DNA of 64,000 nucleotides from Candidatus Omnitrophota bacterium (GCA_043814965.1 JBDRJN010000002.1:39984-103983); one strand, 5' to 3'. Counted from the stretch's first letter, positions 6,723-60,391 are shown. Numbers and translations are program-made. The notes: generated by a model not told the origin, from the sequence alone.

Positions 6723-7991
6723 TTAAGCTTTATTTAGTTTTGATGTAAACCTTCTTATCTTTTGTATATTCTCACTTGATCTCGGCTCGAGTAATTCAGA
6801 GAATATTGCCTTATTGTGCCATAGTGGGTCAGTGTCCTTTTTTAAGGTGTTGTTCTTTAACATGTTCTTATAATCCATGGTGCCTGGTATAGAGGAATAA
6901 CTTGCCAATACTACCTTTACTCCGAGAGAGTTTATAAATAATATATCTTTCATGGTCTTATCAATATTAAGCCAGTTTGCGCCTATTAATATGTATACGC
7001 CTAAGTCGCTTTTATTGAACCCGGCTTCTCTTAGATTGCGTATAGCCCTCTTTAAGTCTACATTAGTTACCTTTGCTCCTGTAAAGAACTGCAGGTCTTC
7101 ATCAGATGTCTCAAGAGATAATCTGAGTTCCTTGAAATTTGCATGTTTAAATAGATGGGCCAGGTCTTCATCTATGAATCTAGCATGGAGGCCATTCGGT
7201 GTATGGAATGTAAGTTTGCGTCCCGAAGCTATAACCATCCTCAGGAACTTTTTTATGCCAATGCCGCTCTTATAAATAAGGGCGTCATCGTAAAAGACGA
7301 ATTTATCCGTACCAAACGTATTATGATAATGCATGACCTCTTCAAATAGGTCTACAGGGTCTTTTAACATGAACCCTCCTGATATCATCCTGGATGCGCA
7401 GTAACTGCATCTAAAAGGACAGCCCTGAGTGAGCTGTATCGGGAGCATGTTTCTTTCAAATAATAGGTCGTAAGCTGGATAAAAACCTTTTTTAAAGAAG
7501 TAGTCTCTTTCGAGGTAATCTTTTTCCCATATAATATCTGCGCCACTATGTAGGGAGGCGTGTCTGGGGGAGAGCGTAGCGTATATGCCGCCAAGCGTGA
7601 TCTTTATATCTTTAAAATATTCTCTTAATGATTTTATAGTAAGTTGTACCCCAGGATACCAGTATGTCATGCCTGATGTAACAAATATCTCATCAATATC
7701 CTTTAAGGCGTTTAGTTTGTTTTTAAACTCCTCTATGGATATACCGTATCTAAAATAAGGCCTTTTAATGTCTTTTATAGTATCTGGTTTATCAACATTC
7801 TCTTTTCTGATCTTTGAGAAACCAAATTCGTCTTTACTCCTTCCGCAGTTCTCAAGGCAATCTACAAGATAGACGCGGCTGCCATCTCTACGCAGCGCCT
7901 CTCCTATACGTAGTAGCCCTATTGGCTTTATGCCGTAGTCGTGAGCAGCAAAATCATATATCCAAGGGTTTACAAGAAGGACTTTTCTCAT
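6723..7991 (-). CDS. B12-binding (class B) radical SAM enzyme
   Basis: N-terminal B12-binding-like fold (LLVNPWIYDF..). Radical SAM cluster QGCPFRCSYCAS (CxxxCxxC). Confidence 0.8.
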   Translation of the reverse strand: MRKVLLVNPWIYDFAAHDYGIKPIGLLRIGEALRRDGSRVYLVDCLENCGRSKDEFGFSKIRKENVDKPDTIKDIKRPYFRYGISIEEFKNKLNALKDIDEIFVTSGMTYWYPGVQLTIKSLREYFKDIKITLGGIYATLSPRHASLHSGADIIWEKDYLERDYFFKKGFYPAYDLLFERNMLPIQLTQGCPFRCSYCASRMISGGFMLKDPVDLFEEVMHYHNTFGTDKFVFYDDALIYKSGIGIKKFLRMVIASGRKLTFHTPNGLHARFIDEDLAHLFKHANFKELRLSLETSDEDLQFFTGAKVTNVDLKRAIRNLREAGFNKSDLGVYILIGANWLNIDKTMKDILFINSLGVKVVLASYSSIPGTMDYKNMLKNNTLKKDTDPLWHNKAIFSELLEPRSSENIQKIRRFTSKLNKA

Positions 7992-8365
7992 GTCATATTA
8001 TGTTATCATGATAGAATTTTAAAGGCAAGATTTAAGTCTCACAAAAGCATAGATCATTATAACCATAGCAAGACTTCCCTATAAGCTCAGGTGAAATTTT
8101 TCCCGAGTCCCGAAGTCTCTAGACTCGGGGCCGTCTTTTAAGGAGGTATTTTATATAGGGCTAAAAAAACTCGTCGCTAATATATATAGCAGGCTCAGAC
8201 AGTTTTTAGCCTATATTTAAAAGCTAAAATACTATTAATGAAAGACTAAACTTTCAATTTGCTTATATGGAAGCCTTACTATGGTTTATGGGTTTATTGC
8301 ATGTTTTTGGCTGAGCGTCTTTTTGAAGAGCTTCTGTCAGTCAAGAACAATAAGCAGCATAATTA

Positions 8366-9709
8366 TTAAAGGCTGGGATTTAAAGTAAGAGCTAATTCTT
8401 TCCACATGGATATGTGTTCCATACATAGGTATATTGGAAGGTCCTTGGAGTGTTTTCTCAAGGCTTCGAGTATCTTTTCATATATCGATCTTCTTAGCGC
8501 ATAAGGATACCTTAGCTTATTATCAAAACCTTTCAGGAGTTCTCCGTCGAGGATGGTATTATACGGGAAGCGTTTTTCAATAGTTGTCTTTACCTTTGGG
8601 TTGAACCTTAAGGTCCCTATACTGATCCATGCTATGTGTTTTGGCTTTATCCTGGAGAATAGGGCATCTATGAGTTTTTTATATTCTTTTTCCCATCCAA
8701 TAAAATATATCACTGGATCAAAATGTATACCTATCTTGTAACCTGCCTGAGCGCATAGTGCCATGGCCTCAAGCCTTTCCGAAAGAGAGGATGCGGAGAA
8801 TTCATTTTCATCGATCATCTTTTGAGGGTTGAGCGACCAGGAGGCTACTATATTGCCTGCATGCCGGGCGTTTAATAGATTTTTTATATTTTTGCTCTTT
8901 GTCTTAAATTCAAAACGGATGTTCGTATGGTCTTTAAAAAAATCTATTATATGGAGGGAGTATCCTGTTATATCATCGAGCATCAGGGAATCAGAAAATT
9001 CGCCTGTACCTATGCGCATACGACATTTTTTAAAGCCCTTGAAGCTATCAAAGAACTTATCAAGGTTTGACGGGAATATGATGCCAGGCGTATTTGTATA
9101 TTCCTGGAGGTAGCAGTAAGTGCAGTCATATATACACCCAAAGCTCAGGTTGAATATATTGTACCCGCAGCATACAGCTTTTTTTGTACAGGGGCATCTT
9201 TTAAAAAGATCATGCATCTCGTTGGTGATAAATACAGTATCAAGCCTTTTATTGTAGTCTTTTATCGAGAATCTCTTGTTGTGCTCCAAATAGCTCTTGA
9301 GGGAAGGGATCATCTTTATGCTAGACTCGGAAAATGCTTTTTTAAATGAATTTGCTAGCGAAGAGTCCGAGGATGCTTCTTCGATAAGTATATCTTTTGG
9401 ATAAAAGTGTTTTTCGGGTTTAGCTATAGAGCCCGGATCAAGTTCTAACTTTGGAAGGTGCGCATTTAACTCCCTATTAAGATATCCCTGAGGGAAACGT
9501 GTTTTAAGAAGGATATCTTTTATCTTGTGGAAGTCTTTTGTTTCAATACTGCTTAGGATATTGGATGGTTTGCGTGAATCCCTTTTTGATATCTCAAAAA
9601 CAAGCCTTACAAGTTCCTGGGCCTTGTTTACGCCGAGAGCTGGGAAGTCTTTTGATATGAGCTTTTTAATATCTTTTAAGAGCTCGATATTTTTTGTATG
9701 AACTTCCAT
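8366..9709 (-). CDS. Radical SAM protein, SPL-like family (spore-photoproduct-lyase/COG1533-like)
   Basis: CxxxCxxC in GCIYDCTYCYLQ, with extra upstream Cys (CPCTKKAVCCGYN). 447 aa. Confidence 0.7.
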   Translation of the reverse strand: MEVHTKNIELLKDIKKLISKDFPALGVNKAQELVRLVFEISKRDSRKPSNILSSIETKDFHKIKDILLKTRFPQGYLNRELNAHLPKLELDPGSIAKPEKHFYPKDILIEEASSDSSLANSFKKAFSESSIKMIPSLKSYLEHNKRFSIKDYNKRLDTVFITNEMHDLFKRCPCTKKAVCCGYNIFNLSFGCIYDCTYCYLQEYTNTPGIIFPSNLDKFFDSFKGFKKCRMRIGTGEFSDSLMLDDITGYSLHIIDFFKDHTNIRFEFKTKSKNIKNLLNARHAGNIVASWSLNPQKMIDENEFSASSLSERLEAMALCAQAGYKIGIHFDPVIYFIGWEKEYKKLIDALFSRIKPKHIAWISIGTLRFNPKVKTTIEKRFPYNTILDGELLKGFDNKLRYPYALRRSIYEKILEALRKHSKDLPIYLCMEHISMWKELALTLNPSL

Positions 9710-10395
9710 ATAAGGTCCAGTGAGAGTGATATAGAGCCCGAGAGCCTATCTTTTTCTTTACCTTCCAGCGGCACGTAAAATGGTTTTACATTTATGATAT
9801 CTGTTATATAAAAAAGCGCCATGGCGTTTAATCCAGCTTTACTGGCTGCAGAAAATAACGCAGAGCATTCCATATCTACGACGTCTATACCAAGAGAGCT
9901 GAATCTATCAATATAACCTTCTTCTAGAAGAAGGGAAGCCAGTGTAGCGCATGTGACTTTTTTGATAGATGATGAAATGTTATCTTCCAGGAATTTTTCT
10001 GAGAGCTCTCTATCAGGGTAGAACATCTTCGGGCCTTCAATGTCATTTAAGAGCATGTCGCTGAAGCTTTCAAATGCATAGCATTTATCAGGCATTACGA
10101 GGCTTGCTACATCTAAGTCGGGCGTTTTTTGTGTAAGGCCGCACGAGCCCAGTATTATTACGTTTTTGCATCCTGTGTTTTTTAGGTGCAGTACGCAATC
10201 ACCAGTCAGGGATGGGCCTATGCCAGTATGTATTACAGTAGAGAACTTATTCTCTGCAGATGAATATATCTTACCTCTTGAAAAATTTGTTATGTTGAAC
10301 TTTTTTAGGAGATCTTTTGGTATAAGGGGAAGGAGGATGCACGTGTCTTTGACCTGGGAACTATCTATGCCAAATAAGGCCTTGAATTTATTCAT
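9676..10395 (-). CDS. PNP_UDP_1-family nucleosidase, MTA/SAH (5'-deoxyadenosine) nucleosidase-like
   Basis: VIILGSCGL, VVDMECSALF and ALFYITDII match E. coli Pfs motifs (INTGSAGG, AVEMEATAIA, VVVRAISDV). A DeoD/MqnB-type function cannot be excluded. Confidence 0.65.
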   Translation of the reverse strand: MNKFKALFGIDSSQVKDTCILLPLIPKDLLKKFNITNFSRGKIYSSAENKFSTVIHTGIGPSLTGDCVLHLKNTGCKNVIILGSCGLTQKTPDLDVASLVMPDKCYAFESFSDMLLNDIEGPKMFYPDRELSEKFLEDNISSSIKKVTCATLASLLLEEGYIDRFSSLGIDVVDMECSALFSAASKAGLNAMALFYITDIINVKPFYVPLEGKEKDRLSGSISLSLDLIWKFIQKISSS

Positions 10396-11468
10396 AATTC
10401 AATAAGATTGTAATCTATGTTACCCAGGCCTATTTTGTGCGCGTATTCAAAGATCTTTTTATATGAGTTTCCCGGGCGTTCTTTTAGTATCACGTCACCA
10501 GCTTTATTCATGATATCTATAGTTGCTTTGTCCATGCTTAATATGTCGCGCGAGGCGATTATGCCTATATCATCCGATATCATGGGCTCATCCTTAGTGG
10601 ATATACAGTCGCATTCTTTGGTTATATCGAATGCAAAATTTATAAATAGCTTGTTTTTGAACTTTGATAGTATGAACTTTGCTACATCAACAGTCCTTTT
10701 GATAAATATATCGACATCCTCGTGCCAGTTTACGCCTATTGCATCGAATTTGCAGGCGCAGAGGCATTCTCCACAGCCAACGCATATAGATCTATCTATA
10801 GCAGCCTTAGAGGTGTCTTTGTCCGAAGTTATTGCGTTTACTGGGCATATTTTTATGCATAAGCCGCAGGCAGTACACTTTTTTTGTATCACCTGTGGTT
10901 TTAGCGAAGAATGCTGGATCTGTTTTGTGGATTTCGAGGACATGCCCATAGCGACATTTTTGATACCAGCTGCAAATCCAGAGAGTATGTGACTAGTGAC
11001 ATGGGAAAGGACTACAACGCTATCGACCATGCCTATAAAAGATGGGATCTTGACCTTTTTTATGTATTCCGAGTCTATGTCATAGGTCGATCCATCCTGG
11101 CCAAAGAGGCCGTCAGCTATTATAAATGGGGCGCCTATCCTGGAATGTGAAAATCTTTTATTTAAGGCCAGTGTCAAGTGGTCTACTGCATTAAGGCGGG
11201 AGCCCTTATATATGACATTTGTATCAAATAAGAATGGTTTTGCTTTTTTATCTTTTATGTCCGATATGACCAGTTTTACGAGCTCCGGGTCGACGTGATA
11301 TACGCATTCGCTGTCGCCTATAGTGATCTTTACAGGCACGAATTCGTCCTTTTTGTAGGCTATCTCAGGGCCTAATGCCTCTAGTAGTTTTAAAAGACAA
11401 TTCCTGCGTGACTGTAAGTCCTTGCCGTTAGATCTAACAAAATAAACCTTGCTTTTCATAGTAGTCAT
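10392..11468 (-). CDS. DUF362-domain protein with a C-terminal 2x[4Fe-4S] ferredoxin domain
   Basis: Two CxxCxxCxxxCP motifs (CTACGLCIKICPVNAI and CVGCGECLCACKFDAI). The N-terminal 200 aa are DUF362-like. Confidence 0.7.
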   Translation of the reverse strand: MTTMKSKVYFVRSNGKDLQSRRNCLLKLLEALGPEIAYKKDEFVPVKITIGDSECVYHVDPELVKLVISDIKDKKAKPFLFDTNVIYKGSRLNAVDHLTLALNKRFSHSRIGAPFIIADGLFGQDGSTYDIDSEYIKKVKIPSFIGMVDSVVVLSHVTSHILSGFAAGIKNVAMGMSSKSTKQIQHSSLKPQVIQKKCTACGLCIKICPVNAITSDKDTSKAAIDRSICVGCGECLCACKFDAIGVNWHEDVDIFIKRTVDVAKFILSKFKNKLFINFAFDITKECDCISTKDEPMISDDIGIIASRDILSMDKATIDIMNKAGDVILKERPGNSYKKIFEYAHKIGLGNIDYNLIEL

Positions 11469-11713: not shown

Positions 11714-12562
11714 TTAATATCTTTTATACTTATTGTCAAAATAAGCATCGAGCTTATGTATGTATATATTGTGATCTTTGCCAGAGGACTTTGCCTCTTT
11801 TTTGATGCTTTCCTCGATATTATACCAGAAAGAAGTGTAATAGTCTTTATCTTTTGAGAGCTTGGCGTAATTATCCTTTAATTCAGGATAGATGCCTACT
11901 ATGGCAGTTATTATATTTTTTATGTTTCCCACCATAAAATTCAACCCTTCAAACTCAACTGCTCTTGCCTTGGGAAATCTTGTAAATATGCCGCTAATAT
12001 CTGATACATAAGGCAGGATCGGAGAAAAGTACGGCGTGACATTGATGCCTTTTTCCAGAAGTCCATTTATAGCATTAAATCTATCTACATATTCAGGGCT
12101 TTTTGCCTCCAAGACATTTTTAAGCATAAAAGGGATGTTATTTATAGTAAAATATATATTTTTACAGAACCCTTGAGAAAGAAGGCCTGTGTATTCTGCT
12201 ATATAATTTGAACGCGTGAGGATGTTGTAATATACACCGTATCTATTTAATATCTCAAGGACCTGTTTTGTTATCCTATATTTTTTTTCAATATCCTGGA
12301 AGCAATCAGTGGTGGAGCCCAGGAGTACGCATTTTGGTTTTTTGAGGAGTATTTCTTTTTCAAGCAGTCTTGGCGCATTTACTCTTATATCAACATAGCT
12401 TCCCCAGGTCTCTTTTTTCTTTGATATGACTTTATTGTGCCTTACATAGCAATAAAGGCATGAATACTCGCATCCCATATATGGGTTTATGACGTATTCC
12501 CCGAGGTCTATGGAGGTCGGGTTAAGTATCCTGGATATCTTTACAGTATTAAAATCCGTCAT
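11714..12562 (-). CDS. Radical SAM protein, SPL-like family
   Basis: MGCEYSCLYCYVRHN (CxxxCxxC). 282 aa. Overlaps the upstream B12-radical SAM gene by 4 nt. Confidence 0.7.
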   Translation of the reverse strand: MTDFNTVKISRILNPTSIDLGEYVINPYMGCEYSCLYCYVRHNKVISKKKETWGSYVDIRVNAPRLLEKEILLKKPKCVLLGSTTDCFQDIEKKYRITKQVLEILNRYGVYYNILTRSNYIAEYTGLLSQGFCKNIYFTINNIPFMLKNVLEAKSPEYVDRFNAINGLLEKGINVTPYFSPILPYVSDISGIFTRFPKARAVEFEGLNFMVGNIKNIITAIVGIYPELKDNYAKLSKDKDYYTSFWYNIEESIKKEAKSSGKDHNIYIHKLDAYFDNKYKRY

Positions 12563-13869
12563 TTTTCTATCAGGTTGCCCAAAAAGGCGTTTGTGTACTT
12601 AAAGCCATGTCTTTTTATCTCGCTTACAAAATATTCATACCTTTTTATTGCAATACCATTGGTCGAATTGCCTGAACTTTTCTTAAGAGGGGTTCCTTCA
12701 TAGTAAGTAAAAGGGTTTATCTGTTCTATCTTTGGTATAAGAGTTTTATTTTTTATCAAAAATTCCAGGCTTTCCTCAAAGTCTTTTTCTGTCTCTCCTG
12801 GGTAGCCTGTTATCATGCTTATGCCAAATCTTAAGCCAGCATCCTGCAGATCCTTAAAGAATATCACCGCATCGCTGGTAGTAAAACCCTTATTCATATT
12901 CAGCAATGTACGATCACACCCTGACTCAAGTCCTACAAAGAGATTATAGCATCCGCTTTTTTTTATTTTTTCGAACAACTCTTTAGGCATATCTTTTCTT
13001 ATACATATCTGCGCTTCCCATGGGATGGATCTAAAATTTCTAATGATCTCTTCGGAAAGTCCGTCAAGTTTTCCTAGGTCAGCATTTATCATAGAGTCAT
13101 TGAATACAAAATTCCGCGCTATTTTATTATGAAGCTTGTGATATTCGACCTCATCCATGAGGCTTTCTATAGATCTTGCCCTAAATCTTTTATAAAGCAG
13201 GCGCTCGGAACAAAAAGAGCATTTTTTAATACACCCCCTTGATAAAAGGAGAGATATAGTTTTTTTTGGGTAACTAGATATGTCAATAGAGCGGTATTTT
13301 GGAAAGCTTGCGTCATCCAGGCACTTTAGTTCTTTAAAGCAGGATGTTTCATTAGTAGCGTTGTCAGGCCCTTTTATAAGGTCAAATAGCGAAAGCTCTC
13401 CTTCGCCAACCACGATATGGTCTACAAGGTTTTTTATTTCTTCAGGGAATGAGCCATTGTATTTAAAGAATAGCCTAGCTATCTCTGGCCCGCCGAGTAT
13501 TATCTTTGTAAGAGGCTTTTTTGATCTTATAAACTTTATTATTTTTATAGTCGATGAGAAATTACTTTTAAAACATGAAAACCCTATTATATCGCAGGAG
13601 AGGAGCTTATTTATAACATCATCGAACTTTTCAGGAAAATCTTTCTCTAGGAGAGACAGGATATTTTTTTCTAAAGCAGAATTACAGCTTATTGACCAGT
13701 CTTTTTTTAGGCTGCCAGAGGCCAGGTTATAAAATATATTATTTATATCCAGGATATCCGCATGAATGCCTTTTTCGATCAAAAAACTTTCAAGATAAGA
13801 TAGCCCCAGAGGCGGCATCATAGGATAGAAAACAGGAAGTATCGTGAGTAATATCTTTTGCTGGGCCAT
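12559..13869 (-). CDS. B12-binding (class B) radical SAM enzyme
   Basis: N-terminal B12-binding-like region. LLSRGCIKKCSFCSE (CxxxCxxC). Confidence 0.8.
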   Translation of the reverse strand: MAQQKILLTILPVFYPMMPPLGLSYLESFLIEKGIHADILDINNIFYNLASGSLKKDWSISCNSALEKNILSLLEKDFPEKFDDVINKLLSCDIIGFSCFKSNFSSTIKIIKFIRSKKPLTKIILGGPEIARLFFKYNGSFPEEIKNLVDHIVVGEGELSLFDLIKGPDNATNETSCFKELKCLDDASFPKYRSIDISSYPKKTISLLLSRGCIKKCSFCSERLLYKRFRARSIESLMDEVEYHKLHNKIARNFVFNDSMINADLGKLDGLSEEIIRNFRSIPWEAQICIRKDMPKELFEKIKKSGCYNLFVGLESGCDRTLLNMNKGFTTSDAVIFFKDLQDAGLRFGISMITGYPGETEKDFEESLEFLIKNKTLIPKIEQINPFTYYEGTPLKKSSGNSTNGIAIKRYEYFVSEIKRHGFKYTNAFLGNLIEK

Positions 13870-40759: not shown

Positions 40760-40787
40760 TAGGACTTTAACCAGAAAGGACTAACTC

Positions 40788-41199: not shown

Positions 41200-41311
41200 A
41201 AGATACAAAATTAAATATCCCGCGCAACTGGTGTCTTACATGGGAAACCATGAGGAAGCGCGTAAAAAATAAACGGTAAATCGTCCACCTGGGTTTTATA
41301 ACCCGGGTTTT

Positions 41312-52978: not shown

Positions 52979-53919
52979 TATACGATGTAATTATTATAGG
53001 CGGCGGGCCAGCCGGGCTTACAGCCAGCCTTTATAGTTCACGAGCAAGGCTAAAGACACTGGTCATTGAAAGCTACATGGTAGCAGTACAGGCGGTCTTG
53101 ACTGAAAAAATAGAGAATTACCCTGGTTTTCCAGGAGGCATAGGCGGATTTGAGCTTATAGAGAACTTTAAGAAACAATCCAGGGAATTTGGATCAGAGT
53201 TTATCATAGGAGATGTTAAAAATATAGAAGAGACTATACAGGATAATAAAAGATATTTTAATGTGATAACAGATGACAAGTCATTTACTGCCTTATCAAT
53301 TATCATTGCTTCAGGCGCAAAGCTGAAAGAACTAGGAGTAGAAGGCGAAAAAAAGTTCCAGGGAAGAGGCGTATCATATTGCGCTACTTGCGATGGAGCG
53401 TTCTTCAAAGACAAGGATATAGTTGTCATAGGAGGAGGAGATACTGCGGTTGAGGAGGCCTTATTTTTGACAAGGTTTGGTAAAAAGGTGACGCTTATCC
53501 ATCGTAAAGACAGGTTAAGAGCTACGAAGGTGCTGCAAGAGAGGGCATTTGAGAATAAAAAACTTGATATCATATGGGATTCTACTTTGGTCAAGATCTT
53601 AGGTAAAGACAAAATCGAGAGCTGTTTACTAAAGAATATAAAGACCAATGAAGAGAAAAGCATAGAATGCAGCGGTGTATTTATCTTTGTCGGCTATATA
53701 CCTAATGCAAGTTTTAGTAAGGATATCTTAAAATTAGACAAGGATGGATATATAATCACGGATAAAGAGATGGGTACTTCTAAAAAAGGCATATTTGCTT
53801 GCGGTGATTGTACTAGTAAGAGGCTTCGCCAGGTAGTAACAGCATGCGGAGACGGCGCAACAGCTTCTTTTAGCGCCCAGGCTTATGTAGAGGACTTAAA
53901 AGGTATAGCATATAAGTAG
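52975..53919 (+). CDS. trxB: Thioredoxin reductase
   Basis: IIIGGGPAGLTAS and the redox motif CATCDG. 314 aa. Confidence 0.85.
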   Translation: MIYDVIIIGGGPAGLTASLYSSRARLKTLVIESYMVAVQAVLTEKIENYPGFPGGIGGFELIENFKKQSREFGSEFIIGDVKNIEETIQDNKRYFNVITDDKSFTALSIIIASGAKLKELGVEGEKKFQGRGVSYCATCDGAFFKDKDIVVIGGGDTAVEEALFLTRFGKKVTLIHRKDRLRATKVLQERAFENKKLDIIWDSTLVKILGKDKIESCLLKNIKTNEEKSIECSGVFIFVGYIPNASFSKDILKLDKDGYIITDKEMGTSKKGIFACGDCTSKRLRQVVTACGDGATASFSAQAYVEDLKGIAYK

Positions 53920-53932
53920 AAAGGGGGAGGTC

Positions 53933-54310
53933 ATGAGAAAAATATTGGTTGTTTCCATGTTAGCGGTATTTTCTCTAGGGATAATAGGTATATCTTACGG
54001 AGAAGATATAGCAGCTACTGAAGAAGCTGTTCCAAAATGCGAGATGTGCAAGATGCGCATGAAAAAAGATGGTGAAAAAGGCGGCATGCATGAGATGAAG
54101 TCAATGATGATGAAAGGCATGATGCAGAAGGAGATGGTGCCTACCAAGGACGGAGGAGTGATAGTCCTTTCAGGGAATAAACTTTTGCAATATGACAAGG
54201 ACCTAAACCTTAAGAAAGAGGTTGAGATCAAGACAGATATGGAATGCATGATGAAAAAGATGAAGAAGTGCATGGAAGACAAAGAAAAGACGAAAGAAGA
54301 GCCTCAATAA
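53933..54310 (+). CDS. Secreted Met/Lys-rich protein (putative Cu(I)/Ag(I)-binding)
   Basis: Signal peptide. MHEMKSMMMKGMMQKEM and CMMKKMKKCM. Met-rich Mx(n)M clusters as in CusF/CopC/PcoC-type metallochaperones. Confidence 0.5.
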   Translation: MRKILVVSMLAVFSLGIIGISYGEDIAATEEAVPKCEMCKMRMKKDGEKGGMHEMKSMMMKGMMQKEMVPTKDGGVIVLSGNKLLQYDKDLNLKKEVEIKTDMECMMKKMKKCMEDKEKTKEEPQ

Positions 54311-54322
54311 AAGGAAGCCCTT

Positions 54323-55477
54323 ATGGCAAAAGACCCAGTATGCGGTATGGATGTGGATGTATCCAGGTCTTTAAAGCTTACAAAAAATAACGAGGTGTAT
54401 TATTTTTGCAGTAAGCATTGCCTTGAAAAATTTTTAGGCTCTAGAAATATAGCTGGCTCTCAACTAAAAGGTTGTATAGTTGAGAGCCAGTCAAAATGGT
54501 ACCATAATAGACTTTTTATCGCATCGCTGGTTTTGTTTTTTATATATAGCTTGTCTTTTATCCTGCCTATTCTAGCCCCATTCAGGGAAAATCTTATAAT
54601 GTATTTCAAAAAGATGTGGTGGGCTGTCTCGTTGGGCCTTATATTGGGCGGAGTCATAGACCATTTTATACCGAGAGAGTATGTTTCGCATATATTGTCA
54701 AAACCGCGTAAACGCACGATCCTGTATTCGGTCATACTTGGGTTTTTTATGAGCGCATGCAGTCATGGGATACTGGCTTTATCCATTGAGCTGCATAAAA
54801 AAGGCGCGTCCAATCCTGCGGTAGTCGCATTTTTACTCGCAAGTCCCTGGGCGAACCTGCCTCTTACAATAATGCTTCTGGCGTTTTTTGGCCTCAAGGC
54901 ATTGTATATAATAGTAGCTGCTGTGATAATAGCCATAACAACAGGCTTTATATACCAGGTCTTGGAGTCAAAGAACCTGATAGAGATAAATAAGAACATT
55001 TTAGAGACCAAAAAAGATTTTTCTATAGCCAAAGATATAAGAAGCAGGTTTTTCTCTCATAAATTTTCAATGGAAGACATCAAAGGTATATATAGAGGAA
55101 GTGTATCGTTAGCTAATATGGTGCTTTGGTGGATAATCATAGGCATGGTGTTCGCAAGCCTGGCCAGCAGCTATGTTCCCCGCAGTGTGTTCCAAAATTA
55201 TATGGGCCCAAGCATATTTGGCATGCTGGTTACCCTAACTGTTGCGACTATACTCGAGGTGTGTTCTGAAGGTACAGCGCCTTTGGCATTTGAGATATAT
55301 AGACAGACGCTCGCATTCGGTAATGCATTTGTGTTTTTAATGGCAGGGGTAGTGACTGACTATACAGAGATCGGGCTTTTGTATTTTAATGTAGGTAAAC
55401 GCGTTGCAATATTACTGCCTATAATAACAGTCCCCCAGGTAATAATCTTTGGTATAATAGCAAATAAGTTGTTCTGA
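54323..55477 (+). CDS. YHS/TRASH-domain-fused membrane permease (DUF318-like)
   Basis: N-terminal CGMDVD..YYFCSKHC (YHS/TRASH) followed by about 8 TM helices. Confidence 0.65.
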   Translation: MAKDPVCGMDVDVSRSLKLTKNNEVYYFCSKHCLEKFLGSRNIAGSQLKGCIVESQSKWYHNRLFIASLVLFFIYSLSFILPILAPFRENLIMYFKKMWWAVSLGLILGGVIDHFIPREYVSHILSKPRKRTILYSVILGFFMSACSHGILALSIELHKKGASNPAVVAFLLASPWANLPLTIMLLAFFGLKALYIIVAAVIIAITTGFIYQVLESKNLIEINKNILETKKDFSIAKDIRSRFFSHKFSMEDIKGIYRGSVSLANMVLWWIIIGMVFASLASSYVPRSVFQNYMGPSIFGMLVTLTVATILEVCSEGTAPLAFEIYRQTLAFGNAFVFLMAGVVTDYTEIGLLYFNVGKRVAILLPIITVPQVIIFGIIANKLF

Positions 55478-55594
55478 GGTTCTTAGGTTATTGAATCCAA
55501 GTTTAAAGTTGGCTGTCTATATTTTTATTGATTCATAGTTATAACTTGAAAAATAATACAATTTGCCTTAGTATAACATAAAAAGGAGAGTCGT

Positions 55595-56116
55595 ATGGCA
55601 GATGAGCGCAAGATCACGATCAAAGGAAATCCTCTTACTTTATTGGGCAGTGAGCTCGATGTAGGCGGAAAAGTTGCAAATTTTAAAGTATTGGATAGCG
55701 AGCTCAAGGAGGTATCTTCGGGAGATTTCTCTGGAAAGATAAAACTTATAGCTTCAGTCCCGTCCCTGGATACGCCTGTATGCGATACAGAGATAAAGCG
55801 TTTCAATGATGAGGCAAGTAAATCATCAAAGGACCTTGTCGTACTTTTTATATCAATGGATCTTCCTTTTGCGCAAAAAAGATTCTGCCAGATGAATAAT
55901 ATAAAAAATATAAAGACCTTATCTGACCATAGAGATGCTGATTTTGGCATGAAGTATGGGGTTCTTATAAAGGAGCTTAGGCTTCTAGCCAGGGCTATAT
56001 TTATAGTTGATAAAGATGATATATTAAGATATCATGAACTAGTAAAAGAGCTTTCATCCCCGCCGGATTATGATAAGGCATTGGGGGCTTTAAAGGCTGT
56101 AACAGCTAAAAAATAA
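55595..56116 (+). CDS. tpx: Thiol peroxidase (Tpx-type peroxiredoxin)
   Basis: SVPSLDTPVCDTE active-site context. 173 aa. Promoter-like TTGAAA..TAGTAT at 55520-55550. Confidence 0.8.
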   Translation: MADERKITIKGNPLTLLGSELDVGGKVANFKVLDSELKEVSSGDFSGKIKLIASVPSLDTPVCDTEIKRFNDEASKSSKDLVVLFISMDLPFAQKRFCQMNNIKNIKTLSDHRDADFGMKYGVLIKELRLLARAIFIVDKDDILRYHELVKELSSPPDYDKALGALKAVTAKK

Positions 56117-56131
56117 ACAGGAGGAGTAAAG

Positions 56132-56272
56132 ATGAAGAAATATAAATGCACAGTATGTGATTATATATATGACCCAAAGGAAAACGGCAATGTCGCGTTT
56201 AGTGATCTACCCGATGATTGGGTATGCCCTGAATGTGGTGTAGGAAAAGATATGTTCGAGGCGGAAGGTTAA
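56132..56272 (+). CDS. Rubredoxin (46 aa; below the ORF-track cutoff)
   Basis: Hand translation gives [46 protein letters not shown], with CxxC..CPxCG. SD GGAGGAG at 56119. Confidence 0.85.
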
Positions 56273-56326
56273 AAATAGAGCAGTGAACTGATTTACAGCG
56301 CAGCTTCAGCAACTTAAGGATTCTAG

Positions 56327-56749
56327 ATGAAAGAAAAAAGTTTTGTCTGCCATGATTGTTTTAAATTAAAGAATTGCAAAGAATCAGGCCTATCATGGCT
56401 ATTCTTTTTTATTGCCTTAGTAGCTGTCATAGCATTGAGAGCAGTAAATCTAGTATTTGATTTTAACCCGTTATTCGCAAAATCTCTTTGGTATCTGGGC
56501 GTGACTGGTTTTTTTGTATTTTTTATATATAAATTCAGGTATGACCAGATACTGCATAAAGAACTTTATAAGACCAGGCTCAAAGACAAACTTCTCAATA
56601 AAGAAGACCTCACCGAGCATGACAAAGAAGTTCTTGGGACTATAGTATGTAAGTTGAGTTCGAGAAAGGATAAGATAAATTATTTTTTTATATTTGTGTC
56701 TTCTTTTTTAGCATTGGTCTTCGGAGTATACCTAGATTTTTTTAAATAA
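56327..56749 (+). CDS. Membrane protein with an N-terminal CxxC motif, function unknown
   Basis: CHDCFKLKNC followed by 3 TM helices. Confidence 0.4.
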   Translation: MKEKSFVCHDCFKLKNCKESGLSWLFFFIALVAVIALRAVNLVFDFNPLFAKSLWYLGVTGFFVFFIYKFRYDQILHKELYKTRLKDKLLNKEDLTEHDKEVLGTIVCKLSSRKDKINYFFIFVSSFLALVFGVYLDFFK

Positions 56750-56775
56750 AAAAGAAAGGAAAAAAAGGTGTCTAT

Positions 56776-57168
56776 ATGCCAGAAGCAAAATACACATGTA
56801 ATGATGATATCCTTTGCGGAGTAAATGTCCCTAAGGATAAAAACAACCTGGCTGACCTTGAGAAGAAACATTTACCTGTAATAGATAGCCCTGAAAAAGT
56901 GAAAAAGGATGGGGCCTTTGAGATCAAAATAGAAGTAGGCGGCATAGATGGAGTAATCCATCCTAACGAAGCAGCTCATTTTATTGAATGGATAGAACTA
57001 TACTGCGGAGATACATTTTTAGGCAGGTCATCTTTTAGCGGCGGAACTAGCTATGGCGTGGCAAGGTTTAAGGTAAGGTTAAGTCATACGCATGGCTCTA
57101 TAAAAGCCAGAGCAAAATGTAATCTTCACGGACTTTGGGAAAGCTCCAGGGATATCACTATAGAATAA
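56776..57168 (+). CDS. Superoxide reductase (1Fe-SOR/neelaredoxin-like)
   Basis: EKKHLPVID (compare the EKHVP motif). HPNEAAHFIEWIELYCGD..H ligand pattern. 130 aa. Confidence 0.65.
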   Translation: MPEAKYTCNDDILCGVNVPKDKNNLADLEKKHLPVIDSPEKVKKDGAFEIKIEVGGIDGVIHPNEAAHFIEWIELYCGDTFLGRSSFSGGTSYGVARFKVRLSHTHGSIKARAKCNLHGLWESSRDITIE

Positions 57169-57629
57169 TGCAGAAACTTACAGAAGGCGTAATCAGATTT
57201 TTTTATCACCAACCGTATACTGTTATCACTACTATAGATGGTAATGGCTATCCTCATAATTCTTGTAAAGGTATAGTAGATATTGAGAAAGACAATAAAG
57301 TATATTTGATAGACCTTTATAAGAAGAAGACTTATGAAAACCTTAGAGTCAACCCAAACATAAGCATCACTGCTGTAGATGAGCATAAGTTTATGGGTTT
57401 TTCTTTAAAGGGTAAGGGTAAACTGGTAGATATAGAAGCAGTTTCTGAAGACAGCCTCAAAAAATGGGAAGATAAGATACTTAAGAGAATATCCTATAGG
57501 CTTGTAAAGAACTTAAAAGGCGAAAAAGGGCATCCACGGCACCCAGAGTCGCTCTTACCAAAACCAGAATATCTTATTTTAGTAGAAGTCGAAGAAGTAA
57601 TAGACCTTACACCGCATAATATAAAATAA
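57169..57629 (+). CDS. Pyridoxamine-5'-phosphate-oxidase-like FMN-binding family protein (start adjusted)
   Basis: MQKLTEGVIRFFYHQPYTVITTIDGNGYPH. Start placed at ATG 57169, directly after the SOR stop. Confidence 0.45.
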
Positions 57630-57633
57630 AATC

Positions 57634-58536
57634 ATGCTAGACCTTATTATAATAGGCGCAGGGCCTGCAGGTATTACTGCATCGGTCTATGCAGCCAGGA
57701 AAAAAATGGATTTTCTTGTTATCTCAGAAGATATAGGAGGCCAGACTGCCTGGAGCGGAGACATAGAGAACTATACTGGGTATCAGTTTGTGAGCGGCCC
57801 TGAATTAGTCGCTAAGTTTGAAGAACATATGCGCAGCTACGGGACAAGCTTAAAAGAGAATGAAAGAGTTGAAGAAGTCAAAAAGCTGGACAATAGTATC
57901 TATATAAAGACCAATAAAGGAGAATATCATTCGAAGACAGCTATTATAGCATCCGGGAAACGCTCAAGAGAACTAGGTGTCAGTGGAGAAAAAGAATTCA
58001 AGAACAAGGGGCTTACGTATTGCGCGACCTGTGACGGCCCGCTCTTTGCAGGCAAGGATGTTGCGGTAATAGGCGGAGGGAATTCCGCGCTGGATGCAGC
58101 GCTGCAGCTAATCAGGATAGCAAGCCATGTATATATCATAAATATTGCTAAGGGCCTTACAGGCGATGCTATAATGCAGGAGAAATTAAGGCGGTCAAAG
58201 AATGTCACTATATTAAATGATACTAAGATCCAGTCTATATATGGAGAAAAGTTCGTAAATGGCATAAAGATAAAAAGTTCTTCTAAGGAAAAAGATATAA
58301 AAGTAGAAGGGATATTTGTAGAGATAGGCCTTATACCTAATTCTTTTTTTATAGATGGAGTAGAAAAGAACAAGGCTGGAGAGATAAAGGTAAATTCTTA
58401 TAACGAGACCAATATCCCAGGCATCTTTGCTGCAGGAGATGTCACAGATATACCTGAAAAACAGATCATAATAGCTGCAGGAGAAGGCGCGAAAGCAGCT
58501 CTTAGCGCCTTTAGATACCTATCGCGTCTTAAATAA
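57634..58536 (+). CDS. Thioredoxin-reductase-like pyridine nucleotide-disulfide oxidoreductase (second copy)
   Basis: IIIGAGPAGITAS and CATCDG. 300 aa. Confidence 0.75.
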   Translation: MLDLIIIGAGPAGITASVYAARKKMDFLVISEDIGGQTAWSGDIENYTGYQFVSGPELVAKFEEHMRSYGTSLKENERVEEVKKLDNSIYIKTNKGEYHSKTAIIASGKRSRELGVSGEKEFKNKGLTYCATCDGPLFAGKDVAVIGGGNSALDAALQLIRIASHVYIINIAKGLTGDAIMQEKLRRSKNVTILNDTKIQSIYGEKFVNGIKIKSSSKEKDIKVEGIFVEIGLIPNSFFIDGVEKNKAGEIKVNSYNETNIPGIFAAGDVTDIPEKQIIIAAGEGAKAALSAFRYLSRLK

Positions 58537-58551
58537 TTTTCTACTATACTG

Positions 58552-59190
58552 ATGAAACCTATAAAGATAAGAGTAGTAGAGATAATAAAGACCTTACGGA
58601 AATTATATCCAAAAAGCCGCACAGCTTTATGCTATAGGTCTCCTTTGGAGATACTTGTGGCGACTATACTTTCAGCTCAGTGTACGGATAAGAGAGTCAA
58701 TAAAGTTACCCCGGGCCTATTTAAAAAATATAAAAATGTATATGGTTTTTCCAGGGCTAAACAAGCTAGTCTTGAAAAAGATATCCACTCGTGCGGTTTT
58801 TTTAGATCTAAGGCAAAAAATATTATAGCCAGTTCCAGGAGGATCGTAGAAGTTTTCAGCGGAAAGGTCCCGGACACAATAGATGACCTATTGACCCTTC
58901 CGGGAGTTGCGCGTAAGACAGCAAATATAGTTTTATCGAGTGCGTTTAAAAAATCAGAAGGTATAGCAGTAGATACCCATGTAAAGAGGCTTTCCGGAAG
59001 ATTAGGCCTTAGTAAAAATCTCGATCCAAATAAGATCGAGGAGGACCTATTAAAAATAGTGCCTAAAAAATACTGGATAGATTTTAATTATATATTAGTG
59101 GACCATGGCCGCGCGATCTGTGATGCAAGGAAACCGCTATGCAGTGAATGCGCTATTAGGAAGCTTTGCCCCTCGCTTAATAAGATTTGA
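58552..59190 (+). CDS. nth: Endonuclease III
   Basis: HhH-GPD segment LPGVARKTANIVL and a [4Fe-4S] loop CDARKPLCSECAIRKLC. Confidence 0.85.
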   Translation: MKPIKIRVVEIIKTLRKLYPKSRTALCYRSPLEILVATILSAQCTDKRVNKVTPGLFKKYKNVYGFSRAKQASLEKDIHSCGFFRSKAKNIIASSRRIVEVFSGKVPDTIDDLLTLPGVARKTANIVLSSAFKKSEGIAVDTHVKRLSGRLGLSKNLDPNKIEEDLLKIVPKKYWIDFNYILVDHGRAICDARKPLCSECAIRKLCPSLNKI

Positions 59191-59220
59191 TTGTTAGGAT
59201 AGGTTCTTGGCTTATATTGT

Positions 59221-59340
59221 TTTTGATTTGGCGAGGTCTGAAAAAAGCCTTTTTATTTTGCGAAACCTATAGATCTTGCATTACATAATATACTGCCTGT
59301 CAAAATAAAACGTCTTTTTGAAGACCTTGCCGAATCAAAA
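59221..59340. repeat. Structured repeat element, copy B (same family as 3462-3633)
   Basis: Outer stem ttttgatttggcgaggtctgaaaaaagcc pairs with gtctttttgaagaccttgccgaatcaaaa. Conserved core AAAAAGCCTTTTTATTTTGCGAAAC..TGCCTGTCAAAATAAAACG with a compensatory G-to-A/C-to-T pair relative to copy A. Ends 44 nt before the radical SAM gene. Confidence 0.5.
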
Positions 59341-59383
59341 TATACTAGGAATAAATTTACGTCTTCGAATACTTTAAATTATT

Positions 59384-60391
59384 ATGTTAAAAGAAGCATT
59401 ATTATACGATAAGTTAAGTGATTCGAAAGTGCAGTGCATATTGTGCAGGCATAATTGCACTATATTACCTGGTGAATTCGGAATATGCGGGGTCAGGAAG
59501 AATATAGATGGAAAACTTTACACTTATGCTTTCGGCAGTGTAATAGCTAGCCATGTTGATCCTGTCGAGAAAAAGCCTTTATATCATTTTTTACCCGGCT
59601 CGATGTCTTTTTCCATAGCTACTATAGGGTGCAATTTTAAATGTTCTTTCTGCCAGAACCACGAGATATCCCAGCGCTCATTTAAAGATGGAGAAAATGA
59701 AGGATATGCGATGTCTCCCGAGGAAGTAGCAAAAGAGGCAAAGAAGAATAATTGTAAGAGTGTATCCTATACATATACAGAGCCGACAATATTTTTTGAG
59801 TATGCTTATGAGTGTAGTAAACTTGCTAAAAAAGCAGGGCTTAAGAATGTCTTTGTCACCAACGGTTATATGACTGAAAAAGCGCTTAATATGATATCTC
59901 CGTATCTAGATGCATGCAATGTAGACTTAAAGAGCTTTAATAAAGGTTTCTATAAAAATATATGCGGCGCTGACCTTGATGGTGTCTTGGATTCAATAAG
60001 GATAATGAAAAAACAAGGCATTTGGATAGAGATAACTACTTTGGTCGTGACAGGAGAGAATGACTCAGAAAAGGAACTCAAAGATGTAGCTCGTTTTATA
60101 TCCAGCTTGGATAAAAATATCCCATGGCATGTAAGTAGATATCACCCTGATTATAAATATGTCAAAGGTGGGCCTACTCCTATAGAGAGATTGCGATTAG
60201 CAAGATCCATAGGTGAAAACGCGGGTCTTAGATATATATATCTAGGTAATGTCCTTGAAGGAGGAAACACTTATTGTTATAATTGTAGGAAGCTTCTAGT
60301 AGAAAGAGAAACATTCAGCGTAAGAGAAGGCTATGTAAGACAAAATAAATGCCCCAATTGTTCTAAGGAAATAGAAGGGAGATGGCAATGA
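59384..60391 (+). CDS. AmmeMemoRadiSam-type (PFL-activase-like) radical SAM enzyme
   Basis: N-terminal CILCRHNC and GCNFKCSFCQNHEIS clusters. No AMMECR1 or Memo gene adjacent. Confidence 0.75.
   Translation: MLKEALLYDKLSDSKVQCILCRHNCTILPGEFGICGVRKNIDGKLYTYAFGSVIASHVDPVEKKPLYHFLPGSMSFSIATIGCNFKCSFCQNHEISQRSFKDGENEGYAMSPEEVAKEAKKNNCKSVSYTYTEPTIFFEYAYECSKLAKKAGLKNVFVTNGYMTEKALNMISPYLDACNVDLKSFNKGFYKNICGADLDGVLDSIRIMKKQGIWIEITTLVVTGENDSEKELKDVARFISSLDKNIPWHVSRYHPDYKYVKGGPTPIERLRLARSIGENAGLRYIYLGNVLEGGNTYCYNCRKLLVERETFSVREGYVRQNKCPNCSKEIEGRWQ

Follow-up and report, generated by a model that had tools for sequence, protein, structure and literature searches.

Nine radical SAM genes in 64 kb of a Candidatus Omnitrophota chromosome: a conserved neighbourhood of about seven probably independent units

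The window, a 64,000-nucleotide stretch of DNA from a Candidatus Omnitrophota bacterium, encodes nine radical SAM proteins, all of which were confirmed as genuine radical SAM enzymes. Their high number is probably due to a syntenic neighbourhood, conserved within one Omnitrophota sub-lineage, in which several of the units have stayed close together. The joint reading that we favor, i.e., nine genuine enzymes in about seven independent units, local synteny, no single pathway, and the function proposed below for the first unit, is in our judgment quite probable. The window appears to be ordinary chromosome of a strictly anaerobic organism, and Pfam scans identified an anaerobic gene content (PFL, desulfoferrodoxin, nitroreductases, ferredoxins). 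All ten proteins that were looked up are identical to proteins in the range MFH1478237-284 of an NCBI Candidatus Omnitrophota MAG (164.5-kb contig), in which most of the nine are already annotated.

Radical SAM genes make up 9 of the 56 window ORFs of at least 80 aa. Compared with published genome averages (15 to more than 40 radical SAM genes per genome; PMC8102628), this bears out the statement in a preliminary description that the density is far above the bacterial norm. If one gene per 35-120 kb is assumed, nine or more radical SAM genes would fall within 64 kb with a Poisson probability of 1e-4 to 6e-9; with seven independent units in place of nine genes this becomes 3e-3 to 1.5e-6. Such clustering is improbable under uniform placement even for seven units. 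Some tendency of these genes to co-localize remains.

The preliminary description took the density as a sign that the lineage had expanded its radical chemistry. For comparison we used 77 unique related metagenomic loci (802 kb); the background estimated from them refers to the surroundings of anchor genes on metagenomic contigs of relatives, some of them distant, and not to a random sampling of genomes. Pfam confirmed 60 of the 74 non-anchor radical SAM candidates in these loci, and an in-house radical SAM profile gave 59. The density appears to be local, since 54 of these 59 genes are orthologous to five of the genes in the window, and the 51 loci without orthologues of the window's other radical SAM genes carry just three further ones in 431 kb. 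Four further Omnitrophota loci around B12-binding radical SAM homologues (L086-L089, about 78 kb with about 73 kb of flank) contained no radical SAM gene beyond the anchor, and neither did the related loci L004 and L005. A lineage-wide expansion is thus not suggested by the related loci. We consider it unlikely, though worth keeping in mind, that radical SAM genes have expanded genome-wide in Omnitrophota or in this clade, with the window being a representative sample of a radical SAM-rich genome. The share of radical SAM genes among the window ORFs would agree with this, as would the hundreds to thousands of homologues of each examined family in Omnitrophota metagenomes and the occurrence of two paralogous cassettes of an acyl carrier protein (ACP) and a B12-binding radical SAM protein in one Omnitrophota MAG, but the sparsely populated or empty flanks described above argue against it, and we found no report of radical SAM enrichment in Omnitrophota in the literature. 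A precedent exists in groundwater Elusimicrobia, where up to 13 radical SAM genes lie close together in neighbourhoods beside nitrogenase paralogues (10.1101/765248), but this is a local cluster too. These neighbourhoods resemble the window in containing many closely spaced radical SAM genes, some B12-fused, in an uncultured groundwater anaerobe; however, they surround one nif-like system and were proposed to serve one cofactor pathway (10.1101/765248), whereas the units of the window are separable and have no common core.

The nine genes appear to form about seven units, which we regard as independent because housekeeping genes lie between them, both strands are used (Pfam scans of window ORFs), and their contexts are separately conserved. 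One large gene cluster from 6.7 to 60 kb, for a cofactor, lipid, RiPP or natural product and comprising most of the nine, would accommodate the presence of ACPs and of several B12-dependent radical SAM genes of tailoring-like type. It would also accommodate that the gene for a protein resembling spore photoproduct lyase (SPL) is adjoined by differing radical SAM genes in different relatives, i.e., by the AmmeMemoRadiSam gene in L007, L008 and L024 and by rSAM422 in L024, L026 and L046. Such a cluster is nevertheless very improbable, since genes for glycolysis, two-component systems, the cell envelope, oxidative stress and transport intervene on both strands, and the units dissociate independently in relatives. 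Moreover, no RiPP recognition element, polyketide or non-ribosomal peptide synthetase, or other biosynthetic core enzyme was found among the window ORFs of 80 aa or more that were scanned with Pfam, and PADLOC gave nothing significant.

In radical SAM enzymes, a [4Fe-4S] cluster on a CxxxCxxC motif cleaves S-adenosylmethionine reductively, which starts radical chemistry. All nine CxxxCxxC proteins of the preliminary description were recovered as ORFs that match family models and carry a single motif each, with Tyr or Phe preceding the third cysteine (CxxxCx[Y/F]C). Among six-frame ORFs with 80 codons or more, CxxxCx[Y/F]C occurs in just one further place, a spurious frame of 92 codons (2571, minus strand), and Pfam scans of the remaining 47 window ORFs gave no additional radical SAM domain. 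Against radical SAM HMMs, by which that description proposed to judge the motifs, seven ORFs score above the PF04055 gathering score of 29.5 bits (54-90 bits). The ORF at 8366 lies below it (20.6 bits) and passes the SPL family model PF20903 (104 bits, cut-off 27); the ORF at 11714 (28.6 bits) misses it by 0.9 bit. That chance motifs in proteins of other kinds inflate the count is hardly conceivable in spite of these two low PF04055 scores, since the predicted model of the 8366 protein superposes on SPL structures, the 11714 protein matches three COG1533-type radical SAM models of NCBIfam (E 1e-20 to 1e-28) and keeps the motif in all its orthologues, and PF04055 also matched most of the candidate relatives. 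Of three proteins earlier assigned to cobalamin-binding class B, those at 12559 (35.2 bits) and 36623 (42.7 bits) exceed the PF02310 gathering score of 32.1, while the one at 6723 is borderline and fails (24.8 bits, E 2e-5). The view that substrates are mostly unassignable was upheld by subfamily HMMs: an NCBIfam cut-off was passed only by PflA, at equivalog level (TIGR02493), and by the AmmeMemoRadiSam enzyme, with a family-level model (TIGR04337), and PflA alone has an assignable substrate.

The most interesting uncharacterised piece of the window is a pair consisting of a nucleosidase-like protein and an SPL-fold radical SAM protein with four extra invariant cysteines. The latter (447 aa; 8366-9709, minus strand) gave an AlphaFold2 model with a pLDDT of 85.3, and its best fold matches in the PDB are the SPL entries 4fhc and 4fhe (E 1e-20, target-normalised TM 0.78-0.82 over about 360 columns). 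With SplB (TIGR04070, PDB 4FHC) it shares this fold, the PF20903 match and the placement of the CxxxCxxC motif. On the other hand, identity is 22-24%, and the protein has a helical N-terminal extension of roughly 90 aa, four cysteines in addition to the motif (C172, C174, C181 and C429, invariant in 16 homologues), and, in the alignment, a glutamate ('TGEFSD') at the position of SPL Cys140. In SPL, Cys140 is the H-atom donor, and it is mutated in PDB entries 4fhe, 4fhg and 4rh0. Assignment as a true spore photoproduct lyase was rejected on the basis of this glutamate and a TIGR04070 score of 118.9 bits against a cut-off of 400; to our knowledge, the Omnitrophota phylum is not spore-forming. 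More than 1400 homologues were found, and those with a named source are nearly all from Omnitrophota.

Gene context also distinguishes the SPL-fold protein from SplB. Its gene is coupled to that of a 239-aa PNP_UDP_1-family protein (9676-10395, minus strand; PF01048 57.5 bits), the stop of which overlaps the start of the SPL-like gene by 34 nt. The PNP-like gene is directly upstream in 34 of the 35 loci with close SPL homologues, most commonly with this same overlap (23 loci), whereas distant SPL-like homologues are coupled instead to aldo/keto reductases, GT2 glycosyltransferases or a Zn-dependent alcohol dehydrogenase. The PNP-like protein reached no NCBIfam cut-off (best 33 bits vs 338). 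With DeoD-type phosphorylases and MTA/SAH nucleosidases it shares the fold family, the GSxG loop, and the Met-Glu and Asp motifs, which in DeoD bind ribose and act in catalysis, respectively. In contrast, profile alignment to DeoD structures indicates that the phosphate-binding arginine of DeoD ('iiRvGSCG') is lost ('ilFGSCG', with Phe or Leu at this position), in which the protein resembles the hydrolases of the family; it also has five nearly invariant cysteines. Further upstream lies a gene for a DUF362 protein into which a 2x[4Fe-4S] ferredoxin domain is inserted (10392-11468, minus strand; PF04015 93.5 bits, PF00037 43.9 bits); this gene is found ahead of the pair in 19 of the 27 close loci, L002, L003 and L005 among them. 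From residue conservation, the modeled fold and gene context, we infer that the SPL-fold enzyme may direct its radical chemistry at a substrate of nucleoside or sugar type and not at DNA photoproducts, and that the four extra cysteines probably form a second metal or Fe-S site. The DUF362-ferredoxin would supply its electrons, and the translationally coupled PNP-family protein would be a hydrolytic nucleosidase whose target is either this substrate or the by-product 5'-deoxyadenosine, a compound that inhibits radical SAM enzymes and must be removed (PMC8102628).

These three genes would form the downstream part of unit 1, a minus-strand block that opens with a gene for a PAS-PAS-HD-GYP protein (13890-15278, minus strand; PF13487 139.5 bits plus PAS domains). 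In L002 and L003 this gene is found at the corresponding place, and it is present in 11 of 32 loci. It lies 20 nt upstream of B12rSAM436 (12559-13869, minus strand; PF04055 63.7 bits), which by its sequence is a class-B-type radical SAM protein with a B12-binding domain. Its best NCBIfam matches reach about 100 bits where the cut-offs are 360-600, and it occurs in 10 of the 22 close loci. The stop of B12rSAM436 overlaps by 4 nt the start of rSAM282 (11714-12562, minus strand; motif CEYSCLYC), which is annotated by NCBI as 'hypothetical protein' (ABIG92_00515) and occurs in 14 of the 24 close loci. The latter protein looks like a small COG1533-type enzyme (PA0069 / Rv2578c / mobile-pair-B-like): the COG1533-type models rSAM_mob_pairB and PA0069 matched with E values of 1e-28 to 1e-27 without reaching their cut-offs (TIGR04470 100.3 bits vs 410; NF033668 94.3 bits vs 360), and no sequence relative was found in the PDB. 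A terminator-like 11-bp hairpin (11662-11638) separates rSAM282 from the DUF362-ferredoxin gene.

Unit 2 would comprise rSAM422 (6723-7991, minus strand; PF04055 71.8 bits), a nitroreductase gene (6146-6643) and a GH94 gene (3681-6161). The 422-aa radical SAM protein carries the motif CPFRCSYC and a weak, sub-threshold B12-binding-like domain at its N-terminus. It is listed by NCBI as 'radical SAM protein' (MFH1478237.1) and has no sequence relative in the PDB. Among 11 loci, orthologues adjoin the nitroreductase gene in eight and, as in the window, come right after the SPL-like gene in three. In unit 3, the putative order is FBA, orf85, a giant gene, rSAM-DUF6873 (30019/30058-31572, plus strand) and polyamine genes. 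The start at 30058 is that used by NCBI (504 aa), and the protein combines a radical SAM domain (PF04055 86.4 bits), Radical_SAM_C (PF16199 57.6 bits) and a C-terminal DUF6873 domain (PF21778 217 bits) that is named 'GME fold' by NCBI. Its core is Elp3/YtqA-like (Elp3 93 bits vs 350; MnmL 89 bits vs 180), with Elp3 as the closest PDB sequences. The order FBA, orf85, rSAM-DUF6873 is kept in 8 of 10 loci. Downstream are deoxyhypusine-synthase-like, agmatinase/arginase-family and pyruvoyl arginine decarboxylase genes of polyamine or guanidino metabolism (31716-34098, plus strand; PF01916, PF00491, PF01862), the first two of which also lie 3' of the orthologue in L002.

The fourth unit appears to be an ACP, B12-binding radical SAM protein, sensor kinase and receiver cassette. 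The gene for the ACP (88 aa with a DSV serine; 36360-36626, plus strand; PF00550 47.5 bits) overlaps by 4 nt the start of B12rSAM438 (36623-37939, plus strand; PF04055 68.9 bits), which ends in a DUF4070 tail (PF13282 34.3 bits). It is followed by a gene for a GAF histidine kinase and receiver protein (37941-40494, plus strand; PF02518, GAF, PF00072) and a second ACP (40788-41075; PF00550 38.5 bits). B12rSAM438 has more than 5700 homologues in several phyla, and in all five related loci examined, one of them on a Desulfobacula contig, the gene occurs together with an ACP and with a 7TM/GAF or hybrid histidine kinase. The ACP gene immediately precedes it in three of these and lies two genes upstream in the other two; the kinase gene immediately follows it in three and is a short distance downstream in two. 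Characterized class B proteins such as HpnP/HpnR, BchE, PhpK, MgmA (PDB 9CCB) and AprD4 share with B12rSAM436 and B12rSAM438 the N-terminal B12-binding domain and the radical SAM core; the B12 domain of rSAM422 is below threshold. However, the two proteins score about 100 bits against curated family cut-offs of 360-775, and B12rSAM438 is set in the ACP/kinase cassette, not in a hopanoid or chlorophyll cluster. DUF4070 comes up in two papers on hopanoids, one of which deals with the C-2 methylase HpnP. MgmA is an MCR glutamine methylase, and HpnP itself carries DUF4070.

Of the remaining units, the seventh would be a lone AmmeMemoRadiSam-system radical SAM enzyme (59384-60391, plus strand). It passes the curated TIGR04337 cut-off (334.2 bits vs 220) but differs from the known system in that the AMMECR1 and Memo partners (PF01871, PF01875) gave no match among the window ORFs. 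Unit 6 would pair rSAM278 (51476-52312, plus strand; PF04055 54.3 bits) with the YggS gene 3' of it (TIGR00044 175.8 bits vs 106). By NCBIfam cut-offs, rSAM278 is a small radical SAM protein outside any curated family, with viperin_w_prok as its best match (49.4 bits vs 180) and E values of 1e-4 at best against PDB viperins. A PADLOC match to pVip (50 bits) was read as generic cross-matching and rejected. The putative unit 5 consists of a ZMP/ZTP riboswitch (pfl motif; 41214-41301, plus strand; RF01750 43.6 bits vs a gathering score of 39), pyruvate formate-lyase, a glycyl radical enzyme (41406-43616, plus strand; PF02901 646.9 bits, PF01228 122.9 bits), and PflA (43603-44346, plus strand), the start of which overlaps the end of pflB. 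The earlier identification of the latter protein as PflA is secure (TIGR02493 283.6 bits vs 231.75; PF04055 80.4 bits, Fer4_12 69.9 bits), and its substrate is the adjacent pyruvate formate-lyase. With a PflA at equivalog level, a glycyl-radical PFL beside it and RF01750 upstream, the unit matches the established PflA-PflB system with its riboswitch in full and with no notable difference, and it is already known biology.

All nine radical SAM (rSAM) ORFs were confirmed at 6723, 8366, 11714, 12559, 30058, 36623, 43603, 51476 and 59384. Each contains exactly one CxxxCxxC motif, in which the third Cys is preceded by Tyr or Phe. The only further such motif in six-frame ORFs of at least 80 codons belongs to a 92-codon frame at 2571 (-), which is spurious. 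Seven of the nine ORFs match PF04055 at 54-90 bits (gathering score 29.5). The ORF at 8366 scores 20.6 bits with this model and 104 bits with PF20903, the spore photoproduct lyase (SPL) rSAM family, and the ORF at 11714 stays 0.9 bit under the gathering score (28.6 bits) and matches three COG1533-type rSAM NCBIfam models with E-values of 1e-20 to 1e-28. Since Pfam detected no additional rSAM domain among all other ORFs of the window, the window has exactly nine rSAM genes among its 56 ORFs of 80 aa or more. PDB sequence searches with 6723 and 11714 returned no relatives.

The nine proteins and the PNP-like protein encoded at 9676-10395 (-) match NCBI entries MFH1478237-MFH1478284 exactly (164.5-kb contig, locus tags ABIG92_005xx). 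Most of the nine are already labelled radical SAM in the public annotation. Four carry the name "radical SAM protein"; the others are listed as SPL family protein (8366), PflA (43603), AmmeMemoRadiSam enzyme (59384), "DUF6873 family GME fold protein" (30058) and hypothetical protein (11714). The finding as first stated is a correct gene count in a MAG that was already annotated. The accompanying assignment of three enzymes to class B holds firmly for two, as the B12-binding model PF02310 (threshold 32.1 bits) matches 12559 at 35.2 and 36623 at 42.7 bits; 6723 is borderline at 24.8 bits (E 2e-5). Rfam detected no cobalamin or SAM riboswitch in the window, and no cobalamin synthesis or transport genes were present among the Pfam-scanned ORFs.

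Given the genome sizes, published rSAM counts correspond to at most about one gene per 40-60 kb. Reported numbers per genome are 15 for Bacillus thuringiensis, 18 for Synechococcus elongatus, 25 for Rhodospirillum rubrum, 30 for Methanocaldococcus jannaschii and more than 40 for other Firmicutes (PMC8102628). If rSAM genes occurred once per 35-120 kb, nine or more of them would fall within 64 kb with a Poisson probability of 1e-4 to 6e-9. Gene context divides the nine into about seven units, and counting seven independent units still gives 3e-3 to 1.5e-6. The local enrichment is therefore real, also statistically, and the density is indeed far above typical.

The preliminary description took this density to suggest a lineage-wide expansion of anaerobic radical chemistry. 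Homologues of the SPL-like protein 8366 were aligned and used to scan metagenomes, which gave 80 more loci; together with loci L001-L005 and after deduplication, 802 kb in 77 unique loci were available. Candidates were all ORFs that contained a CxxxCxxC motif or matched a profile of the nine rSAM cores. Apart from the anchors, i.e., the genes used to find the loci, there were 74 candidates, of which Pfam confirmed 60 as Radical_SAM and 13 were polyferredoxins; PF02310 matched 22 of the 74. Our own rSAM profile matched 59 non-anchor proteins, and 54 of these are orthologous to five genes of the window: rSAM282 (11714; 17 orthologues), B12rSAM436 (12559; 13), rSAM422 (6723; 11), rSAM-DUF6873 (30058; 10) and the AmmeMemoRadiSam enzyme (59384; 3).

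The distribution of these genes over the loci is uneven. The 26 syntenic loci (371 kb) contain 56 non-anchor rSAM genes, whereas only 3 lie in the other 51 loci (431 kb), which lack these orthologues. Four further Omnitrophota loci around homologues of B12rSAM438 (36623), covering about 78 kb, had no other rSAM gene. Beyond the neighbourhood, the sampled DNA, which consists of flanks of chosen genes and not of whole genomes, has an ordinary rSAM density, with one gene in roughly 100-170 kb. We therefore read the pile-up as a neighbourhood conserved in one sub-lineage, with a genome-wide expansion in this MAG as the less likely alternative. No paper on rSAM enrichment in Omnitrophota turned up in the literature searched. 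Groundwater Elusimicrobia offer a local precedent, with up to 13 rSAM genes grouped around nif paralogues (10.1101/765248).

The neighbours within this region also vary. In L007, L008 and L024 the AmmeMemoRadiSam gene is convergent to and directly adjoins the SPL-like gene, and in L024, L026 and L046 the SPL-like gene is directly followed by rSAM422. Different rSAM genes are thus neighbours in different genomes, so that they tend to co-localize. The nine genes represent about seven rSAM units, mostly uncharacterized but individually ordinary, that lie side by side in a conserved Omnitrophota neighbourhood. The original observation was correct and its interpretation only partly right. Its main value is a caution, as a local rSAM pile-up is no evidence of lineage-wide expansion.

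Unit 1 is a block on the minus strand. It starts with a PAS-HD-GYP gene (13890-15278), followed by B12rSAM436 (12559) and by rSAM282 (11714), which overlap by 4 nt. A gap of 245 nt with an 11-bp terminator-like hairpin (11662-11638) comes next, and then genes for a DUF362 protein with a 2x[4Fe-4S] ferredoxin (10392), the PNP_UDP_1-family (PNP-like) protein (9676-10395; 4-nt overlap) and the SPL-fold rSAM protein (8366-9709), the last two overlapping by 34 nt (9676-9709). L002 and L003, both Omnitrophota contigs, have the identical order. Of two more distant contigs, L005 retains only DUF362, PNP and SPL and L004 only PNP and SPL, and the distant L001 (46% identity), the sole locus from one contig scan, lacks the operon. 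The PNP-like gene lies directly upstream of the SPL-like gene in 34 of 35 close loci (SPL scores of 520 or higher) and in 44 of 59 overall, so this pair forms the core of the unit. The other members are less constant: in close loci the DUF362-ferredoxin is present in 19 of 27, rSAM282 in 14 of 24 and B12rSAM436 in 10 of 22, and PAS-HD-GYP heads the unit in 11 of 32 loci. The 34-nt overlap is the commonest arrangement (23 loci), which implies translational coupling that was kept across the clade. A promoter scan performed no better than on shuffled sequence (28 sites versus 32 expected).

A hopanoid (HpnG/HpnJ) or a futalosine pathway does not account for this block of PNP-family and rSAM genes. 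No Mqn match was found that would indicate the futalosine (MqnB) pathway, and the hopanoid proteins scored far below their cut-offs (HpnG 20 bits versus 187, HpnJ 89-101 versus 578).

SPL itself was considered as an assignment for 8366. An AlphaFold2 model of the protein (pLDDT 85.3, pTM 0.85) was matched by Foldseek to Geobacillus SPL structures with an E-value of 1e-20, a target-normalized TM-score of 0.78-0.82 and 22-24% identity, so that the two are predicted to have the SPL fold in common. However, the score with TIGR04070 is 118.9 bits versus an equivalog cut-off of 400, and that with TIGR03886, a related family model, is 53.5 bits versus 437.6. Furthermore, the position of Cys140 in G. 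thermodenitrificans SPL, which we take to be the H-atom donor, is occupied by the Glu of an invariant GTGEFSD motif. Four cysteines outside the rSAM triad, C172 and C174 (CPCT), C181 and C429 (YLCME), distinguish 8366 from SPL and are invariant in 16 homologues. They may constitute an additional site for an Fe-S cluster or Zn, which to our knowledge has no counterpart in true SPL. In the model, 8366 also has a helical N-terminal extension of roughly 90 residues, and we know of no spore formation in the phylum Omnitrophota. For these reasons 8366 is not an SPL despite its fold.

The PNP-like partner aligns to DeoD-type phosphorylases and keeps the Met-Glu and Asp motifs. It is hardly a DeoD-type purine nucleoside phosphorylase, as the best NCBIfam score is 33.4 bits versus 338 and the Arg of the "RvGSCG" motif, presumably the phosphate binder in E. 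coli PNP, is Phe or Leu in 22 of 22 orthologues. As judged from the sequence, loss of this Arg points to a hydrolytic nucleosidase. Five nearly invariant cysteines in the family (C19, C76, C85, C177 and C230) are, as far as we know, unusual for PNP_UDP_1 proteins.

Our best inference is that the SPL-fold enzyme would use a substrate of the nucleoside or sugar type for its radical chemistry, with the DUF362-ferredoxin as the probable reductant. The nucleosidase may act on the same substrate or else on inhibitory 5'-deoxyadenosine, the toxicity of which has been described (PMC8102628). The gene translationally coupled upstream of distant SPL-like homologues encodes an aldo/keto reductase in 3 loci, a GT2 glycosyltransferase in 2 and a Zn-dependent alcohol dehydrogenase in 1, and the SPL-like gene of L004 is surrounded by genes for glycosyltransferases and a DegT aminotransferase.

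Unit 4 is a cassette on the plus strand (36360-41075). An 88-aa ACP (36360-36626) overlaps by 4 nt with B12rSAM438 (36623), which carries a DUF4070 tail; next come genes for a histidine kinase with a GAF domain, a receiver protein and another ACP. In each of the five other loci examined, four from Omnitrophota (L086-L089) and one from a Desulfobacula contig, the B12-rSAM gene is found together with genes for an ACP and for a kinase of the 7TM/GAF or hybrid type. The ACP gene is located directly upstream of the B12-rSAM gene in three of them and two genes upstream in the other two. Additional genes encode an AMP-ligase (4 loci), an HD-GYP response regulator (3 loci, with the gene after the cassette in L086 and L089) and a FadL-like channel with an NAD-dependent reductase (2 loci), and MAG GCA_043821705.1 carries two copies of the cassette. 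The gene content suggests that the cassette modifies an acyl group tethered to ACP and that this is linked to signalling. No description of such a cassette was found in the literature searched.

Taken together, we tentatively consider a broader reading, which we hold to be somewhat doubtful. The DUF362-ferredoxin, the Arg-less PNP-family nucleosidase and the SPL-fold rSAM enzyme with its second, four-cysteine metal site might constitute a previously undescribed radical pathway for a substrate resembling a nucleoside or sugar. This pathway would be present almost throughout a large clade of Omnitrophota, and many genomes would add to it a B12-rSAM and an rSAM of the COG1533 type. Separately, the ACP, B12-rSAM, 7TM-GAF kinase and HD-GYP cassette might make and sense an acyl-derived signal, and the window would then contain at least two unknown radical systems side by side. 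The nucleosidase-like/SPL-fold pair with its four-Cys motif and the cross-phylum cassette are the most interesting leads. Both offer tractable entry points to rSAM chemistry in a phylum without ordinary pure cultures, and pursuing them would also probe recruitment of the SPL fold to substrates beyond DNA photoproducts.

The remaining units are simpler. In unit 2, rSAM422 (6723) precedes genes for a nitroreductase and a GH94 protein. Orthologues of rSAM422 adjoin a nitroreductase gene in 8 of 11 loci and, as in the window, directly follow the SPL-like gene in 3 of the 11. Unit 3 comprises FBA, orf85 and rSAM-DUF6873 (30058), in an order that is held in 8 of 10 loci. Genes for a deoxyhypusine-synthase-like protein, agmatinase and pyruvoyl arginine decarboxylase come after rSAM-DUF6873, and such genes also follow its orthologue in L002. 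Together with the NCBI label "GME fold", which we take to mean a guanidino-group-modifying enzyme, these polyamine-type neighbours suggest that rSAM-DUF6873 may catalyze arginine- or agmatine-related chemistry. No paper on DUF6873 was found in the literature searched. Assignment as Elp3 (93.1 bits versus 350; the C-terminus is DUF6873, not GNAT) or MnmL(YtqA) (89.3 versus 180) was rejected. A giant ORF of 3811 aa (18547-29982 (+)), with only sub-threshold TPR and HEAT matches, separates orf85 from rSAM-DUF6873 exactly where the relatives (8 of 10 loci) have both adjacent. Very long proteins have been described for Omnitrophota (10.64898/2026.06.07.730766), and the ORF looks like a lineage-specific insertion of such a protein.

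Unit 5 is textbook biology. A ZMP/ZTP riboswitch (pfl motif) at 41214-41301 (+), with a full-length match (1-86) to RF01750 at 43.6 bits (gathering score 39), is the only Rfam family at threshold in the window. It precedes pflB (41406-43616; PFL-like and Gly_radical domains) by about 100 nt, and pflB adjoins the gene for PflA (43603; TIGR02493 283.6 bits, cut-off 231.75). In unit 6, rSAM278 (51476) is followed by a YggS gene and matches no curated family. A viperin was considered, and NF038283 gave 49.4 bits versus 180, and PDB viperins matched the core with an E-value no better than 1e-4. The PADLOC pVip model gave 50 bits with 51476 and, since it also gave 39 bits with 59384, we regard this as generic cross-matching; PADLOC thus returned only weak, generic rSAM hits and no sign of a defence island. 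A second HD-GYP (c-di-GMP phosphodiesterase-type) protein beside an rSAM unit, after that of unit 1, is encoded at 49911-51203 (-), preceding rSAM278 on the opposite strand. In unit 7, 59384 scores 334.2 bits with TIGR04337 (cut-off 220) and is flanked by endonuclease III and transaldolase genes; the AMMECR1 and Memo partners (PF01871 and PF01875) had no match in any ORF of the window.

The remaining genes of the window describe a strict anaerobe. They encode, besides the giant ORF, PFL, desulfoferrodoxin, two nitroreductases, a peroxiredoxin, two thioredoxin-reductase-like proteins, Fur, FeoB, ferredoxins, glycolytic enzymes, two-component systems and cell-envelope proteins. A redox run at 52975-62146 (+) contains the two thioredoxin-reductase-like flavoproteins, the peroxiredoxin, the desulfoferrodoxin-type superoxide reductase, a PNPOx-like protein, endonuclease III and the Fur-family regulator, which places oxygen-defence genes beside oxygen-sensitive radical enzymes. 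FeoB is located at the window end (62373-64000).
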